DNA from: a virus
Taxonomy: Duplodnaviria; Heunggongvirae; Uroviricota; Caudoviricetes
IMG/VR virus record: IMGVR_UViG_2654588006_000002
Reading direction: 5' to 3' (one strand)
Length of the DNA stretch: 42,565 nucleotides
This document shows, piece after piece, positions 1,034-16,514 of this stretch. Within the stretch, counting starts at the first letter, position 1. Every line of letters begins with the position of its first letter. A program made the translations under genes and the position numbers. A model generated the notes under the pieces. It ran no database searches and was not told the origin of the DNA. It saw only the letters and a list, made by a program, of their open reading frames with translations.

Positions 1034-2059
1034 TTACTTGGAATATTTTCTTGGAATATTTTCAGGTAACGGGACATCAAGTGTCGGTGAAACTTTAACC
1101 TTCCTGTCATAGATTAGCACTTGCCCCTCGGTTTTGTGACCAGAGAAAAGTTGCTTATCCCGACTGCTTCCTTCATAGTCTGAAATTCCTTTCGCCTTCA
1201 GATCATGAAAGGTGAAGTCGGTTAAAATACCTGAAATTTTGCCTGCGCGATTTCTTGCTTCTACCCACATTTCGTTAAAGCCTTTGTACATATATCGGTT
1301 GCCGTATTGATTGCTGATTACATAGGCGGATGTTGGTAACTGTTTTGCTTTTTCGATCGCCGCCTGTAATCGTGGACTCCATGCTTTTATCTGTTTTTTT
1401 CCTGTTTTCCCTTGCTGGATAAAGATCCCGTCGTTTCCAATCTGCTCCCATTTCAGCGATAACACATCGGAAACCCTCGCTGCACACAGATAGGCAATTT
1501 CCATTGCGATAAAAACAGGAAGAGGTGCAACGCTTAATACTGCCTGGTATTCTTTGTCGGTTACATATCGTTCGCGGTTTTTGGCCTTGAATTTACTTAC
1601 ACCTGCACATGGGTTAGCCTTCACGTACCCTCGCTCATACCCCCAACTGTAAACACGGGACATACTGCTTTTTTCATGGTTGGCTTGCGTTTTACTCTGC
1701 TCCCCTCTTTTGTCCATGTATCGACGGATGTGTTCTGGTTTTATGGAATCCGCTGGTACCTTACCGAATACGGCAAGCAACTTTTTTTGATGTTGCAGAT
1801 AATCTTTTTGTGTTCTTGGACTAAGGTCACTGTAATAGGCGCTGGCGAGGAATTTTTCCCACAAGCGACCGAATGTCATTGCACGATCGCGATTATTTAC
1901 AGTTTCCTCATACTTTTTCCATAAAGCAGCTAAACCATCCTTGATGGCGGTTAGTGTGACAGATTCTCTGGATGTTGGTTTCCATACATAACTATATTTA
2001 TTTGGGTATACATTTGGAGGTAATTTTTCGTGTTCAGGATTTTTCCTTCGTCTTCCCAT
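1034..2059 (-). CDS. int: Phage integrase, tyrosine recombinase family
   Basis: 341-aa ORF adjacent to the tRNA; C-terminal region has the HDLK/LFSGHKTEGQVLIYDRK arrangement typical of the tyrosine recombinase catalytic domain. Confidence 0.9.
   Translation of the reverse strand: MGRRRKNPEHEKLPPNVYPNKYSYVWKPTSRESVTLTAIKDGLAALWKKYEETVNNRDRAMTFGRLWEKFLASAYYSDLSPRTQKDYLQHQKKLLAVFGKVPADSIKPEHIRRYMDKRGEQSKTQANHEKSSMSRVYSWGYERGYVKANPCAGVSKFKAKNRERYVTDKEYQAVLSVAPLPVFIAMEIAYLCAARVSDVLSLKWEQIGNDGIFIQQGKTGKKQIKAWSPRLQAAIEKAKQLPTSAYVISNQYGNRYMYKGFNEMWVEARNRAGKISGILTDFTFHDLKAKGISDYEGSSRDKQLFSGHKTEGQVLIYDRKVKVSPTLDVPLPENIPRKYSK
1038..1063. repeat. Perfect tandem direct repeat 2 x TTGGAATATTTTC, with a third partial copy at 1027-1036
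   Basis: Read directly from sequence; overlaps the 3' end of the integrase gene near attL; possible arm-type recombinase binding sites. Confidence 0.5.
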
Positions 2060-8896: not shown

Positions 8897-9350
8897 GCAG
8901 CAAATCCGGCAGGTCTTCCGCCAGTGCATGGACCGCTGCCGGGCGGGTGAAACATGGCCTCCGGACCTGGCTGAGTTTGTGGCACTGATTTCGGAAAGCG
9001 GAGCCAATCCATTCGGTCTGACGGTGGATGCTGTGATGGAGGAGTACCGTCGCTGGCGCAATGAGTCCTGGCAATACGACGGAAGTGATAAGTACCCGTG
9101 GTCTCAGCCTGTGCTGTATCACATTTGCCTCGAGATGCGTTCAAAGGGGATTGAGCGCCAGATGACCGAAGGGGAATTAAAACGGCTTGCAGAACGGCAG
9201 CTGACGAAATGGGCAAAGCATGTTAGTAACGGCCTGAGCGTTCCGCCAGTCCGGCGACAACTGGCGGCACCCAAACGCCCGTCGGGGCCAACGCCAATTG
9301 AGTTGCTGAAACAGGAATATGAACGCCGGAAAGCGGCTGGTTTTGTTTGA
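8688..9350 (+). CDS. Replication protein P-like (helicase loader)
   Basis: C-terminal half aligns by eye with lambda P (DKYPWSQPVLYHICLEMRS vs lambda AESYPWKSNAHYWLVTNLY; EGELKRLAERQL vs DAELRRKAADEL); strong GGGGGAG RBS before ATG 8688; overlaps the O-like gene by 209 nt in another frame. Confidence 0.7.
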   Translation: MQQQVAPHHGQFRKFGQHVSSGNVKTDLSATETAWKLWELMGDVYSNRWTQKNGVAPSKLWIAQIGAMTEQQIRQVFRQCMDRCRAGETWPPDLAEFVALISESGANPFGLTVDAVMEEYRRWRNESWQYDGSDKYPWSQPVLYHICLEMRSKGIERQMTEGELKRLAERQLTKWAKHVSNGLSVPPVRRQLAAPKRPSGPTPIELLKQEYERRKAAGFV

Positions 9351-9385: not shown

Positions 9386-9652
9386 ATGGAGACTGTTTTT
9401 GACGCACTGAAAGCAATGAGAAAAGCCACATCCGTACAACTGGCTGCGCGACTTGGTATCAGTCGTGAAGAAGTGCTGAACGAACTGTGGGAACTGAAAA
9501 AGGCTGGTTTCGTTGATAAAGGTGTGTACACCTGGCATGTGGCTGCTAGCAATGTTCAGCAAGAAGAACCGGAACTACCGACAGTGAAGAAAGAACATTC
9601 ATTTCATCCTAAAGCCCCGGAAAGTGGAGTATGGGATGGTCGTGGTATTTGA
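9386..9652 (+). CDS. Hypothetical small protein, winged-helix-like
   Basis: From Met10 of ORF 9359..9652 with [52 protein letters not shown]. Confidence 0.5.
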
Positions 9653-10067
9653 GGCTATATACGTCAACCACTGAGAACTCAACTAGAACGGTAACCATGA
9701 CAGTTTGGAGAACGTTAGCGTCCGGCGTTTGATGTTCGCTTTGCGCCTGAGGCTGTCTTGGTAATAGGAGCATGTTGTCAAAAGATGTCTCTTGCAACTA
9801 TCACATCGGGGATTTTAAGTGTATGCACTTAACGTTACTTTATTTTGAATAGTATAAAAATTCTCTATAAAAACAATGCATTACAATTGTTAAAAAACCA
9901 CGTTGTAGACTTTTGGTGTTATGTGTGTTGTAGAAAAATACCTATATTAATCAAATGATTATGGTTTTTAGATGAGTGAGCCAAAAAAAATTATATATAA
10001 GTTTGTGATTTTTTCACACAAGCACTAGAATGTTCTGATGCAAGTTAAGTTGTTTATGGAGGTTAGG

Positions 10068-11381
10068 ATGTTTGTTCAATTTTCTTTTAAAAATTATTTG
10101 TCGTTTAAAGATGAATCAACTCTATCGATGCTTGCCGCGAAAATTAAGTCTAAAGATAAAGGTTTAGATAAACGCGCGGTGTTTAATGCTTTTCCTGATG
10201 TTGATCTTTTAAAAGCAGCCGTTATATATGGTGCAAATGGAAGTGGAAAAAGCAATATCTTTTCTGCTTTATCTTTCATGAAGAGAATGGTGATCAATTC
10301 TTCAAAAGAATCTCAAGCAGATGAAGATATAAATGTTCTTCCATTTAAGTTAAATCCAAGGTTTGAGGATGAGCCTTCGGCTTTTGAAATGATATTTATA
10401 ATTAATAACAAACTTTACGAGTATACGTTTGCTGCTGTTCGAAATAAAATCACATCAGAAACATTATCTGTAATCGAAAAGAACAGAGATGAAGTGATTT
10501 TGTTCGAGAGAAATATGAAAGAAATAAAGGTACACAAACAGTTCAAAGAAGGTATTGGTTTAGAAAAAAGAACCAGGAAAAATGCGTTGTTCTTATCTGT
10601 CTGTGCTAATTTTGATGGCGAGGTATCTAAATCGGTAATTAGATGGTTTAGAAAAATTAGAGTTATTCAAGGTATGAGTGACATAGGTTATCTGCCATTT
10701 ACTGTGAAACTTTTGGATGATGATAATAAACGTAAAAAAATAAAATCAATTATTGATATGTTCGATCTCGATATTGTCAATATATCTAAGAGCCAAATTC
10801 AGCAGACAGAGAAAAAAGAAAATGAGCTTTTAGATGCGATATTTTCAACTATAAAAAAAGATTCAAGATTTAAAAATGTGTCTTTACCTCAGTCTAATCC
10901 ACTAGGTATCTCAACTACCCATAACCGTTTCAATGACGAAGGTGTTTTTGTAGATACAATTAATTTTGAGTTAAATGAAAACGAATCTGAAGGAACAAAA
11001 AAGCTCATTGCATTGGCTGGCCCTTTAATGGATACCTTTGACAACTCATATATATTGTTTATCGATGAGTTTGATGCAAGGCTTCATCCTTTGATTACTA
11101 AACAAATTGTTAGGATGTTCAATAGTTTAGATATCAATAAAAATAATGCGCAATTGGTAGTCGCAACGCATGATACAAATCTTTTAGATAAAGATGAGTT
11201 ACGTAGAGATCAGATATGGTTTGCGGAAAAGGACTCATTGGGTGGGTCGCATTTAAAACAACTAGTTGAATATAAAGTTAGGAACGACGCATCTTATCGA
11301 AAAGGGTATTTTGAAGGCGATTTTGGCGCTATTCCTATGTTGGGTGAGCCAGATATAATTTTTGATTCAGAATTAAATTAA
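10068..11381 (+). CDS. AAA_21/ABC-type ATPase (AbiLi-like), 437 aa
   Basis: GGAGG RBS 5 nt before ATG 10068; Walker A GANGSGKSN; signature-like ESEGTKK; Walker B ILFIDEFDARLHP; H-loop VVATHD; strongly AT-rich coding sequence. Confidence 0.85.
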   Translation: MFVQFSFKNYLSFKDESTLSMLAAKIKSKDKGLDKRAVFNAFPDVDLLKAAVIYGANGSGKSNIFSALSFMKRMVINSSKESQADEDINVLPFKLNPRFEDEPSAFEMIFIINNKLYEYTFAAVRNKITSETLSVIEKNRDEVILFERNMKEIKVHKQFKEGIGLEKRTRKNALFLSVCANFDGEVSKSVIRWFRKIRVIQGMSDIGYLPFTVKLLDDDNKRKKIKSIIDMFDLDIVNISKSQIQQTEKKENELLDAIFSTIKKDSRFKNVSLPQSNPLGISTTHNRFNDEGVFVDTINFELNENESEGTKKLIALAGPLMDTFDNSYILFIDEFDARLHPLITKQIVRMFNSLDINKNNAQLVVATHDTNLLDKDELRRDQIWFAEKDSLGGSHLKQLVEYKVRNDASYRKGYFEGDFGAIPMLGEPDIIFDSELN

Positions 11382-11408
11382 TATTTATAATTTTTGCTGA
11401 GGTTAAAA

Positions 11409-11999
11409 ATGAAATTAAAACAAAGGAACGTTGGCAGCAAAGATATTGAGAAAAAAATTCTTATTGTTTGTGAGGGGGCACGAACAGAACCGTCATACTT
11501 TAAAAAGTTTAAAGCAAATGCAAAATGTGAGGTAGTGGGGGCTGGTTGTAATACTGTTAGTGTTGTTGAAAAAGCATTAGACATGTTCTCTACAGGGAAG
11601 TTTAAAGAAGCGTGGTGTGTTTTTGATAGAGATTCTTTCACTAAGGACAGAGTTAAGTCTGCGCTTGCATTAGCACGAAAAAACAATATAAATATAGCAT
11701 TTTCTAATGAGTCGTTTGAGTTGTGGTATGTTTTGCATTTTGCATATTTAGATACAAAAATTACTCGTGGAGATTATGTGAAGGCGCTAACTGGTTATTT
11801 GGGGAAACCGTACAAAAAGAATGATGATAATATGTATCAAATACTGCTTAAGAATCAGCACAAGGCTATAGAGAGAGCGAAACGTCTTTATAATGAAATG
11901 TTGCCTCCGGGAGCTTGTGAGTGCGACTCTTATCCTTATACTACTATTCATACATTAGTTGAAAGATTAAATAAGTTAGGGCGGGAAATCGGCTCTTAA
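11409..11999 (+). CDS. RloB-like protein (AbiLii-like partner of the ATPase), 196 aa
   Basis: ATG 11409 with GAGG RBS, 27 nt after the ATPase stop; N-terminal KILIVCEGARTEPSYFKKF matches the RloB-family signature as recalled; AT-rich. Confidence 0.7.
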   Translation: MKLKQRNVGSKDIEKKILIVCEGARTEPSYFKKFKANAKCEVVGAGCNTVSVVEKALDMFSTGKFKEAWCVFDRDSFTKDRVKSALALARKNNINIAFSNESFELWYVLHFAYLDTKITRGDYVKALTGYLGKPYKKNDDNMYQILLKNQHKAIERAKRLYNEMLPPGACECDSYPYTTIHTLVERLNKLGREIGS

Positions 12000-12783
12000 T
12001 TAAAACTTATTACTTGACTGTCATATTGACTTATAAGGGTGTAGATATTAAAGATCTATACCTTTTTAATTATGTGGCTTTTAATGGTGTGTTTAGCAGA
12101 TGAATAGTTTTTGCTGTTTTGAATGTAGTTTTATTGCAAAAGGTTCGTTGTGCTTAGGGGGTATTTAAAAGTATACAAGAATAATTTTGAGCTAGTAATA
12201 TAATTTGCTGTATCTCCGTTGTCACTTCCAGTTATTAAAAAATGGAAGCTGGAAATTTTCTTTTTTACAGATTGTTATATATTTACTTTTTGTTCGCAAT
12301 GGTCCTTTGGAACTGTGAGATGATTGGTTTGTTCTTAAAACGAATCCAGACTGCTTATTAACCTCATATCCAATTGTATGGATATATTTCGATACATTGA
12401 GGTTGTTACTGGGTAGTTTGAAAATAATTATGCAAAATATCAGTTTGAGTCTGGAGAGCACATTTAAATAAGTGCTAATGATGTCTGATAGTTGTGCTCC
12501 ATGCTTCACAGAAAAACCAGAGGAATAAATAGTTGCATTGAATCACTGACGAGACAGCCTCATATTTATCAGGAGTGGTGTACGTCCAATACAGGAGGTT
12601 GTCGTGCTGGTTCTCAAATGTGCGCTGGCTATTGCGGCTGTAATGGCAATTTATTGTCTTGCTGTTGTTCTTATGGATCGCTTTTCTGATTGCTTTTAAT
12701 TGGCGAGATGACGGGAGTTAAGTAGAATGGCTGTGGGTGCTTGAGGCTATCTGCCTCGGGCATGAACACCAATGGCAGATAGA

Positions 12784-12855
12784 GAAAAGCCCCAGTTAAC
12801 ATTACGCGTCCTGCAAGACGCTTAACATTAATCTGAGGCTCAATCTATGAACGGC
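12784..12855 (-). ncRNA. Putative Sok-like antisense RNA of the hok locus (approximate)
   Basis: Minus-strand promoter-like TTGCCT-17 nt-TAACCT overlapping the mok/hok translation-initiation region; minus-strand hairpin GCGTC-TTGCAG-GACGC (plus 12806-12821) then a U-rich run; by analogy with hok/sok loci. Confidence 0.3.
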
Positions 12856-12903
12856 AAATCTAGGTTAGCCTCTTACGTGCCGAAAGGCAAGGAGAAGCAG
12901 GCT

Positions 12904-13059
12904 ATGAAGCAGCAAAAGGCGATGTTAATCGCCCTGATCGTCATCTGTTTAACCGTCATAGTGACGGCACTGGTAACGAGGAAAGACCTCTGCGAGGTAC
13001 GAATCCGAACCGGCCAGACGGAGGTCGCTGTCTTCACAGCTTACGAATCTGAGGAGTAA
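12904..13059 (+). CDS. hok: Hok/Gef family type I toxin, 51 aa; in-frame mok-like upstream start at 12847
   Basis: MKQQKAMLIALIVICLTVIVTALVTRKDLCEVRIRTGQTEVAVFTAYESEE resembles Hok; AAGGAG RBS; leader has GCTTGAGGC...TCTGCCTC and AGCCTCTTAC elements resembling hok mRNA. Confidence 0.85.
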   Translation: MKQQKAMLIALIVICLTVIVTALVTRKDLCEVRIRTGQTEVAVFTAYESEE

Positions 13060-13128
13060 GAGACCCGGCGGGGGAGAAATCCCTCGCCACCTCTGATGTG
13101 TCAGGCATTCTCAACGCACCCGCATTTA

Positions 13129-13160
13129 ACCCGCTTCGGCGGGTTTTTGTTTTTATTTTC
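13129..13160 (+). terminator. Intrinsic terminator after hok
   Basis: CCCGC-TTCG-GCGGG hairpin followed by TTTTTGTTTTTATTTT. Confidence 0.6.
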
Positions 13161-16204: not shown

Positions 16205-16280
16205 GGCCCTTTAGCTCAGTGGTGAGAGCGAGCGACTCATAATCGCCAGGTCGCTGGTTCAAATCCAGCAAGGGCCACCA
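16205..16280 (+). tRNA. tRNA with CAU anticodon, tRNA-Ile2 (lysidine) type or Met
   Basis: GGCCCTTTAGCTCAGTGGTGAGAGCGAGCGACTCATAATCGCCAGGTCGCTGGTTCAAATCCAGCAAGGGCCACCA; 7-bp acceptor stem, U8, loop CTCATAA; resembles E. coli ileX-type tRNA from memory. Confidence 0.85.
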
Positions 16281-16281
16281 A

Positions 16282-16358
16282 CCGTCACCAGTTCATCAGG
16301 AAAGAGCGTCAACCCTTTAAGTTGAGTGTGCGAGGTTCGAGTCCCCGGTGGCGGTCCA
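16282..16358 (+). tRNA. Atypical tRNA-like gene (anticodon-loop CCTTTAA, UUU/Lys-like; C1, C8, C33), possibly a pseudo-tRNA
   Basis: Folds by eye as a cloverleaf (acceptor CCGTCAC/GTGGCGG with G-U, anticodon stem TCAAC/GTTGA, TPsiC GGTTCGAGTCC, 3' CCA) but lacks the near-invariant U8 and U33. Confidence 0.45.
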
Positions 16359-16360
16359 GT

Positions 16361-16436
<76 letters not shown>

Positions 16437-16439
16437 TAT

Positions 16440-16514
<75 letters not shown>

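Follow-up and report, generated by a model that had tools for sequence, protein, structure and literature searches.

The window analysed here is a DNA stretch of 42,565 nucleotides (IMG/VR record IMGVR_UViG_2654588006_000002, Caudoviricetes), which is a Qin/Rac-like lambdoid Escherichia coli prophage adjoining tRNA-Ser and mtfA. Within it lies a cassette encoding an ATPase and a RloB family protein, and its two genes very probably form an anti-phage module of the AbiL family, which the prophage carries as accessory cargo. In an earlier sequence-only reading the cassette was described as two co-oriented genes 27 nt apart, both with ribosome-binding sites, and the open reading frames (ORFs) were indeed found in this arrangement, with RefSeq placing both starts at the same positions. 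The features of the cassette are the following.

9874–12073, plus strand: conserved mobile unit comprising promoter region, two genes and terminator, delimited by nucleotide identity to relatives.
10003–10031, plus strand: sigma-70-like promoter TTGTGA-17 nt-TAGAAT, found by promoter scan inside the conserved block 10001–10067.
10004–10018, plus strand: palindrome TGTGA-TTTTT-TCACA, a candidate operator, recognised by its conservation in relatives.
10068–11381, plus strand: gene 1, ORF with the same start in RefSeq, encoding an AbiLi-like ABC (Rad50/SMC-type, AAA_21) ATPase of 437 amino acids (aa), with Walker A at G55–S62.
11409–11999, plus strand: gene 2, ORF with the same start in RefSeq, encoding a RloB/AbiLii-like protein of 196 aa, a putative TOPRIM metal-dependent nuclease.
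12035–12070, plus strand: intrinsic terminator, a hairpin (AAGGGTGTAGAT...ATCTATACCTT) followed by a T run, supported by terminator scan, fold and conservation.

Gene 1 begins with an ATG preceded by the ribosome-binding site GGAGG at 10058, and its product carries the motifs GANGSGKSN (aa 55–63), ILFIDEFD (aa 329–336) and ATHD (aa 366–369), which had been taken in the sequence-only reading for the P-loop, Walker B and H-loop of an ABC/AAA_21-type ATPase. These motifs are present and invariant in 36 aligned homologues, where the Walker A residues G55–K61, the ESxG signature-like residues E306/S307/G309, Walker B D333/E334 and the H-loop H368 do not vary. The profile searches agree with the proposed identity, as the protein matches Pfam AAA_21 with E 4.5e-39 and, among 64 PADLOC ATPase models, scores best with AbiLi (PDLC02335; E 4.5e-91, 303 bits), followed by AriA/AAA_21 (E 8.4e-36). 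The AlphaFold2 model, with a predicted local distance difference test score (pLDDT) of 83, has the form of a Rad50/SMC-type ABC head; this predicted structure resembles PtuA and the ATPases of retrons more closely than AriA, and the NCBIfam PtuA model gives 28.8 bits against a cut-off of 500. The Pfam description of AAA_21 as “putative AbiEii toxin, Type IV TA” (toxin-antitoxin) is a legacy name, and no resemblance to AbiE was found here. The C-terminal tail of the ATPase is variable: a GATTCA repeat encoding (Asp-Ser)n closes the gene in Enterobacter and Klebsiella (about 9299–9350 in locus L012 and 9293–9344 in locus L013), and the E. coli protein is without this repeat (window 11330–11381), its tail residues 420–437 being modelled with low confidence.

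Gene 2 has the ribosome-binding site GAGG 8 nt before its ATG, and its product carries KILIVCEGARTEPSYFKKF at aa 16–34, the stretch by which it had been recognised as a RloB protein and whose motif residues turned out to be invariant in 43 homologues. The match to Pfam RloB is full-length (E 5.9e-43, 147.8 bits against a cut-off of 31.5, model positions 1–195 of 195) and is accompanied by a PADLOC AbiLii match (E 2.9e-29), which upholds the RloB/AbiLii identity. In the same 43 homologues (39–90% identity) the invariant residues are E22, E27, D73, D75, S99, N100, E104, H110, and K137. The AlphaFold2 model (pLDDT 87) has the elements of a TOPRIM core (b1-a-b2-a-b3-a-b4, with Glu after b1 and DxD after b3), namely a strand at 16–21 followed by E22, strands at 40–44 and 65–73, the latter ending in D73-R-D75, and a strand at 95–99, after which the C-terminal half is helical. 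The five invariant acidic residues of gene 2 parallel the metal site of AriB, the nuclease of the PARIS system, where two metals are bound by E26, D30, D88, E90, and E122 (PMC11464382).

Searches for more direct likeness gave negative results: Foldseek of gene 2 against the PDB returned no significant match, phmmer and a hidden Markov model (HMM) of the 43 sequences found nothing among PDB sequences, and Pfam at E ≤ 10 on all 43 family members reported RloB only, with no Toprim_OLD or DUF4435. In hhalign the gene 2 family found nothing against P2 Old (only 3 homologues were retrieved for the last 220 aa of P2 Old, too few for an OLD-TOPRIM profile), and no sequence-level similarity of gene 2 to the OLD family was detectable. 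The fold search by itself is no proof of the TOPRIM assignment, which is nevertheless well supported for the predicted structure by its topology, by the invariant residues and by published analyses (PMC10440598, PMC13064643, PMC11464382). The RloB family as a whole comprises 10,748 representatives of 50%-identity clusters (E ≤ 0.001), nearly all of them stand-alone proteins of about 200 aa. Among 50,697 deposited phage genomes, just 5 encode a RloB homologue.

The pairing of the ATPase with RloB is essentially obligate, and the two genes are co-inherited. In 36 of 38 RloB loci, 27 viral contigs included, the next gene upstream, on the same strand, encodes the ATPase, the other two loci being cut by the contig end; and in 80 genome loci covering many phyla (Cyanobacteria, Chloroflexi, Firmicutes, Spirochaetes, Desulfobacterales, Omnitrophota, and others) 77 were paired, 2 cut by the contig end, and 1 unpaired. 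The co-occurrence of homologues of both genes, proposed as a check in the sequence-only reading, was thereby confirmed. In seven annotated loci, from Morganella, P. aeruginosa, B. cenocepacia, Calothrix, Enterobacter asburiae, and Klebsiella aerogenes, an AAA_21 ATPase gene (429–449 aa) likewise lies directly before the RloB gene on the same strand. The sole unpaired genome locus is L180 of Fischerella muscicola PCC 7414, with no detectable ATPase homologue in about 3 kb upstream. The identities of both proteins to the E. coli pair covary, from 100/100 down to about 27/27%, and relatives keep the arrangement of the 27-nt gap, where a stop codon separates the genes and each has its own ribosome-binding site. 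Both genes are under strong purifying selection: in comparison with the Enterobacter and Morganella copies the ratio of non-synonymous to synonymous substitution rates (dN/dS) is 0.05–0.07 for gene 1 and 0.08–0.10 for gene 2.

The conservation extends beyond the coding regions. Nucleotide identity amounts to 85.5% over 9874–12067 with the Enterobacter asburiae and Klebsiella aerogenes islands and to 84% over 9949–12073 with a Morganella prophage end. The block 10001–10067, which also holds the ribosome-binding site of gene 1, is invariant at 54 of 67 positions in six Enterobacterales copies, as against 19–29% further upstream, and it is conserved alongside genes whose synonymous sites have diverged considerably (dS 0.6–0.9). 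Besides the promoter listed above, an alternative -10 element TATATA/TATAAG is found at about 9993–10001, just upstream of the palindrome, in an arrangement conserved across phyla. At the opposite end the terminator hairpin folds with -21.7 kcal/mol (z -4.35), and its stem is conserved in the Enterobacter, Klebsiella, and Morganella copies, one pair being changed from G-U to A-U. By these sequence features the cassette is a self-contained unit with its own predicted promoter region and terminator.

The contexts of the relatives are diverse. In Enterobacter and Klebsiella the unit is situated at the end of islands encoding AlpA, Bro-N, an integrase-like protein, and a D5-type primase, which by gene content are satellite-like; the Morganella copy adjoins an integrase at a prophage end, the P. 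aeruginosa copy lies directly after an island integrase, and in cyanobacteria the cassette occupies chromosomal sites. A more distant ATPase-RloB pair is present in the P2-like Klebsiella phage ST13-OXA48phi12.1 (L042 3644–5630) between the replication genes and the portal gene, a position that resembles, by analogy, that of old/tin on the P2 map. Upstream of this phage pair a different palindrome, GTTGC-TTTT-GCAAC, is found, and TGTGA-N5-TCACA is absent. Judging from these comparisons, the unit has changed places, across several genera, among prophages, islands of satellite-like type and islands linked to an integrase.

The palindrome TGTGA-N5-TCACA has been kept in relatives from several bacterial phyla. 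Its exact sequence occurs once in the 42.6-kb window and is present in all checked relatives whose ATPase is at least 51% identical (Enterobacterales, Pseudomonas, Burkholderia); an identical 15-mer, on one strand or the other, stands 44–70 nt before the start of the ATPase gene in P. aeruginosa, P. palleroniana, B. cenocepacia, and a metagenomic copy whose ATPase is 70% identical, and one-mismatch versions are found in Calothrix and another metagenome. In the 68 distant genome loci with enough upstream sequence (among L168–L247) it was exact in 10 and had one mismatch in 15, compared with 0.005 and 0.33 in shuffled controls, mostly at 50–62 nt from the ATPase start codon; other palindrome-bearing loci are L005, L008, L009, L012–L014, L044, and L045. 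The relatives carrying it belong to Proteobacteria, Cyanobacteria, Chloroflexi, and Spirochaetes. Alignment of 33 instances on the motif gave the consensus tatataTT-TGTGA-(A/T-rich 5)-TCACA-aAtat, and according to this consensus a TATA-like -10 element directly upstream, with the palindrome near the transcription start, is a widespread arrangement. The palindrome was detected only in the subfamily with roughly at least 39% ATPase identity to gene 1, and it was not found at the lactococcal locus. The 16-mer TGTGAAAAAATCACAA by itself is not diagnostic, because it is common in AT-rich viral DNA: it had at least 120 matches in such DNA among viral contigs, and 1 of the 80 matches listed adjoins an AbiL pair.

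A CRP or FNR site was considered for this element and rejected, since a spacer of 5 nt, instead of 6, separates its CRP-like half-sites. From its position and conservation the palindrome is probably an operator, so far a candidate, that would limit how strongly the toxic pair is expressed. As the element accompanies the cassette from phylum to phylum, a binder encoded by the cassette is more plausible than a host factor, and since no host regulator is common to these phyla the binder would be one or both cassette proteins. It is accordingly conceivable, if on balance doubtful, that AbiL-type cassettes regulate themselves via the palindrome, with the ATPase-nuclease complex or either protein acting as a sequence-specific DNA-binding autorepressor. 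If this were true, such DNA binding would be a property not described for AbiL, PARIS or OLD systems, and autorepression would provide a direct experimental handle on complex assembly and infection-triggered release. No description of the cross-phylum promoter palindrome was found in the papers retrieved on AbiL and RloB.

With regard to known systems, the AbiL definition of PADLOC and DefenseFinder comprises an AbiLi match, an AbiLii/RloB match and adjacent co-oriented genes with the ATPase first, and all of these were found. The pair annotated as “abortive phage resistance protein” in the lactococcal prophage proPhi7, which also matches PADLOC AbiLi and AbiLii, is homologous end to end to both proteins (30% identity and E 2e-51 for its ATPase against gene 1; hhalign probability 99% and E 4e-18 for the RloB profile). 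The AbiL system of Lactococcus lactis plasmid pND861 (AbiLi/AbiLii) has the same order, an ABC ATPase of about 430 aa and then a RloB protein of about 190 aa, and shares the carriage on a mobile element; however, the carrier is a plasmid there and a Gram-negative lambdoid prophage here, and the proteins are only about 25–30% identical. RefSeq names the two products “AAA family ATPase” and “RloB family protein”, AbiL has already been counted in E. coli defence surveys (bioRxiv 10.1101/2022.08.21.504612), and it has been grouped with the defence systems made of an ABC ATPase plus a TOPRIM protein (PMC11464382, PMC13064643, PMC12409363). By the PADLOC and DefenseFinder definitions the cassette is thus classified as a member of the AbiL family and not as a new subtype, and the suggestion of the sequence-only reading that the subtype might be uncharacterised did not hold, because standard tools already call the pair AbiL. 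What is new here is the promoter-proximal palindrome; otherwise the cassette is an ordinary AbiL member already labelled by existing tools.

Other systems of similar design differ in distinct ways. In PARIS (AriA/AriB) the effector is a DUF4435/AriB protein of about 300 aa (about 35 kDa), whereas gene 2 encodes a RloB protein of 196 aa without a PADLOC AriB match, and gene 1 does not classify as the sensor AriA. In P2 Old and other OLD-family proteins (Gabija GajA, retron-associated OLD) the ATPase and TOPRIM parts are fused, in contrast to the separate genes here, and the UvrD-type or reverse-transcriptase partner of Gabija and retron-associated OLD is lacking beside the cassette, with no helicase gene adjacent. 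The RloA/RloB pair of Campylobacter jejuni, the namesake of Pfam RloB, likewise consists of an ATPase and a RloB protein, but it lies in type I restriction-modification loci, whereas the 27 kb of annotated context here consist solely of prophage genes, without hsd genes. The Septu (PtuA/PtuB) and retron Ec78/Ec83/Eco7 modules use an HNH nuclease as effector, in contrast to the RloB/TOPRIM protein of gene 2, which has no HNH match.

The location of the cassette supports its description as cargo. Two further features define the immediate surroundings.

9566–12457, strand not assigned: AT-rich cargo island of 2.9 kb, delimited by homology breakpoints and by a GC content of 0.31–0.36.
9386–9565, plus strand: 5' remnant of a DUF1627 gene cut by the island (RefSeq “incomplete, missing C-terminus”), which is context outside the system.

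The GC content is 0.31–0.36 across 9500–12500 compared with about 0.45–0.59 in the flanks, in agreement with the AT-rich island noticed from the sequence. Similarity to the prophage copies of about 2100 other E. coli genomes ends at 9565, inside the DUF1627 gene, and similarity to other E. coli prophages restarts at about 12457. The island supplants the 3' part of the DUF1627 gene, which occupies the lambda ren position and is 735 nt long when intact in related prophages, and its right end lies upstream of the hokD/sok locus; the PHROG matches of the remnant cover the N-terminal part only and include a weak match (E 0.0028) to an exclusion family resembling Ren. The gene order of the prophage is exonuclease, dicB, ydfC, repressor/Cro, YdaT, DnaT-like, P, the island, hokD, DUF968, RusA, Q, tRNAs, lysis, and terminase, so that the proposed site between the replication and nin/Q modules is correct, with the DnaT-like gene and P to the left and hokD, DUF968, RusA, and Q to the right. 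In a related prophage of E. coli 2015C-3101 (locus L010 7585–9037) the same slot contains a complete DUF1627 gene, a fimbrial pseudogene, and paa (AcfC-family adhesin), and for this reason the slot between DUF1627 and hokD can be regarded as a cargo position, which also bears out the proposal of accessory cargo in a lambdoid prophage. From this gene content the slot is read as a cargo hotspot trading virulence and defence genes. Of 5426 complete E. coli genomes, the same five contain the cassette and the rest of the island, in copies that are 99.8–100% identical; O78 or avian isolates account for several of these strains. About 690 bp of the island (9566–9873 and 12074–12457) are not common to the Enterobacter, Klebsiella, and Morganella cassette copies, and these two segments gave no Rfam, PHROG or repeat signal and no recognisable function. 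A search for flanking repeats as marks of insertion returned short chance-type matches only.

AbiL was described in 1999 and figures in surveys of defence systems, while its mechanism is unsolved; the lactococcal prototype takes effect at a stage later than phage transcription, and no trigger is known for it (PMC13064643). In the proposed mechanism the gene 1 ATPase would sense a cue of phage infection as a sensor or switch and would control the RloB protein, presumably a small TOPRIM-type two-metal nuclease, which after activation would cut nucleic acid, so that the infection would be aborted and the lysogen population protected. In PARIS the AriA hexamer sequesters AriB until a phage protein binds, and the freed AriB cleaves tRNA (PMC11464382, PMC12409363), and P2 Old was reported recently as an abortive tRNase (bioRxiv 10.64898/2026.07.10.737580). 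Because PARIS AriB and P2 Old act on tRNA, tRNA may serve by analogy as a first guess for the nuclease target, at somewhat less than even confidence, with DNA as the alternative. The toxicity of Fusobacterium AbiLii in E. coli (PMC3985639) also belongs to the background of this mechanism. Owing to its own promoter and terminator within 2.2 kb, the cassette would be a convenient E. coli model for the AbiL family, in which it could be asked whether RloB-type TOPRIM proteins are tRNA or DNA nucleases, which cue the ATPase perceives, and whether all split systems of ATPase plus TOPRIM protein are PARIS-like; the promoter palindrome is a concrete lead on AbiL regulation, and with this locus the stretch from the DUF1627 gene to hokD becomes a further documented site of cargo in Qin/Rac-like prophages.

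Several points weigh against the interpretation as an active AbiL defence module. DNA of 31–36% GC is of the kind silenced by H-NS in E. coli, and being AT-rich and H-NS-prone the island may be poorly expressed. The count of promoter patterns in the region was not above chance (12 found, 13.3 expected), and the literature searched yielded no case of an enterobacterial AbiL acting in defence. Fusobacterium AbiLi failed to neutralise AbiLii (PMC3985639), and the PARIS-like sequestration model would be an analogy only; according to Deep et al., the structures predicted for AbiL and RloAB set them apart from PARIS (PMC10802264).

A different function of the pair can also be envisaged. The cassette could mainly be an addiction (toxin-antitoxin) module, in which the ATPase restrains the RloB toxin and the pair stabilises the carrier element, with the anti-phage effect being secondary. 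A promoter-proximal palindrome such as that of the cassette is typical of autoregulated toxin-antitoxin operons, and the cassette resides on mobile elements, here adjoining hokD/sok, another addiction module. In the NetFlax study AAA ATPase-TOPRIM_OLD pairs were neutralisable toxin-antitoxin pairs in E. coli, and RloB nodes were linked to the same ATPase node (PMC10440598); the toxicity of Fusobacterium AbiLii (PMC3985639) points in the same direction. However, in that same study Fusobacterium AbiLi did not neutralise AbiLii and lactococcal AbiLii was non-toxic, lactococcal AbiL was defined through phage resistance (Deng 1999, as cited in PMC13064643), the cassette occupies known defence-cargo positions of phages and satellite-like islands, and PARIS shows that toxin-antitoxin behaviour and defence are compatible (PMC11464382), which together make addiction as the main function unlikely.

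Still less probable is a role of the cassette in the lytic programme of the phage, where read-through from pR after induction would express it for degrading the nucleic acid of host or competitor or for excluding satellites. Its place between the P-like replication gene and hokD/nin/Q, co-oriented with the early rightward operon, would fit such a role, as would the interruption of DUF1627 at the lambda ren position with its weak Ren-like exclusion match (E 0.0028). Yet a conserved terminator closes the unit, and the same promoter block and terminator recur in other contexts, at a prophage end by an integrase, in satellite-like islands and in cyanobacterial chromosomes; these varied contexts favour autonomous expression over a lambdoid timing circuit, and the lytic role is therefore considered very improbable. 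The lowest probability, close to negligible, is assigned to the cassette being silent or inert baggage, acquired recently and either silenced by H-NS or left in E. coli without trigger or partner. This explanation would account for the carriage in 5 of 5426 complete E. coli genomes with copies 99.8–100% identical (with five near-identical copies selection within E. coli is not assessable) and for the strong AT-richness of the island with its approximately 690 bp devoid of recognisable function, but neither ORF is disrupted, all catalytic motifs are retained, comparison with the Enterobacter and Morganella copies gives a dN/dS of 0.05–0.10, and the promoter block and terminator are intact as well. 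The reading as an AbiL-family anti-phage module is thus preferred to all three.

Some minor observations concern the neighbourhood of the island. The hokD/sok type I toxin-antitoxin locus lies immediately to its right at 12735–13059 (Rfam sok 108 bits; hokD 12904–13059); sok was the sole real match of the Rfam scan, which detected no family inside the island, and a weak isrK-like match at 13068–13149 was under the family threshold. The minus-strand ORF 12222–12509 (95 aa) has no PHROG match and spans the island junction, and thus it is probably spurious. The integrase gene of the prophage (1034–2059, minus strand) adjoins tRNA-Ser (892–981), and since RefSeq records a frameshift in the integrase of strain 64EVA, at least some carriers may have a defective prophage. 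Downstream of Q a cluster of four tRNAs is located at 16205–16514, Met/Ile2 (CAT), Lys (TTT), Thr (TGT), and Gly (TCC). Self-immunity against a tRNA-cutting cassette was considered for this cluster and rejected, since 600 of 5426 genomes contain the cluster, as against 5 with the cassette, which indicates no specific link; a tRNA-Lys(UUU) gene is nonetheless present in a prophage that may encode a tRNA-cutting nuclease.

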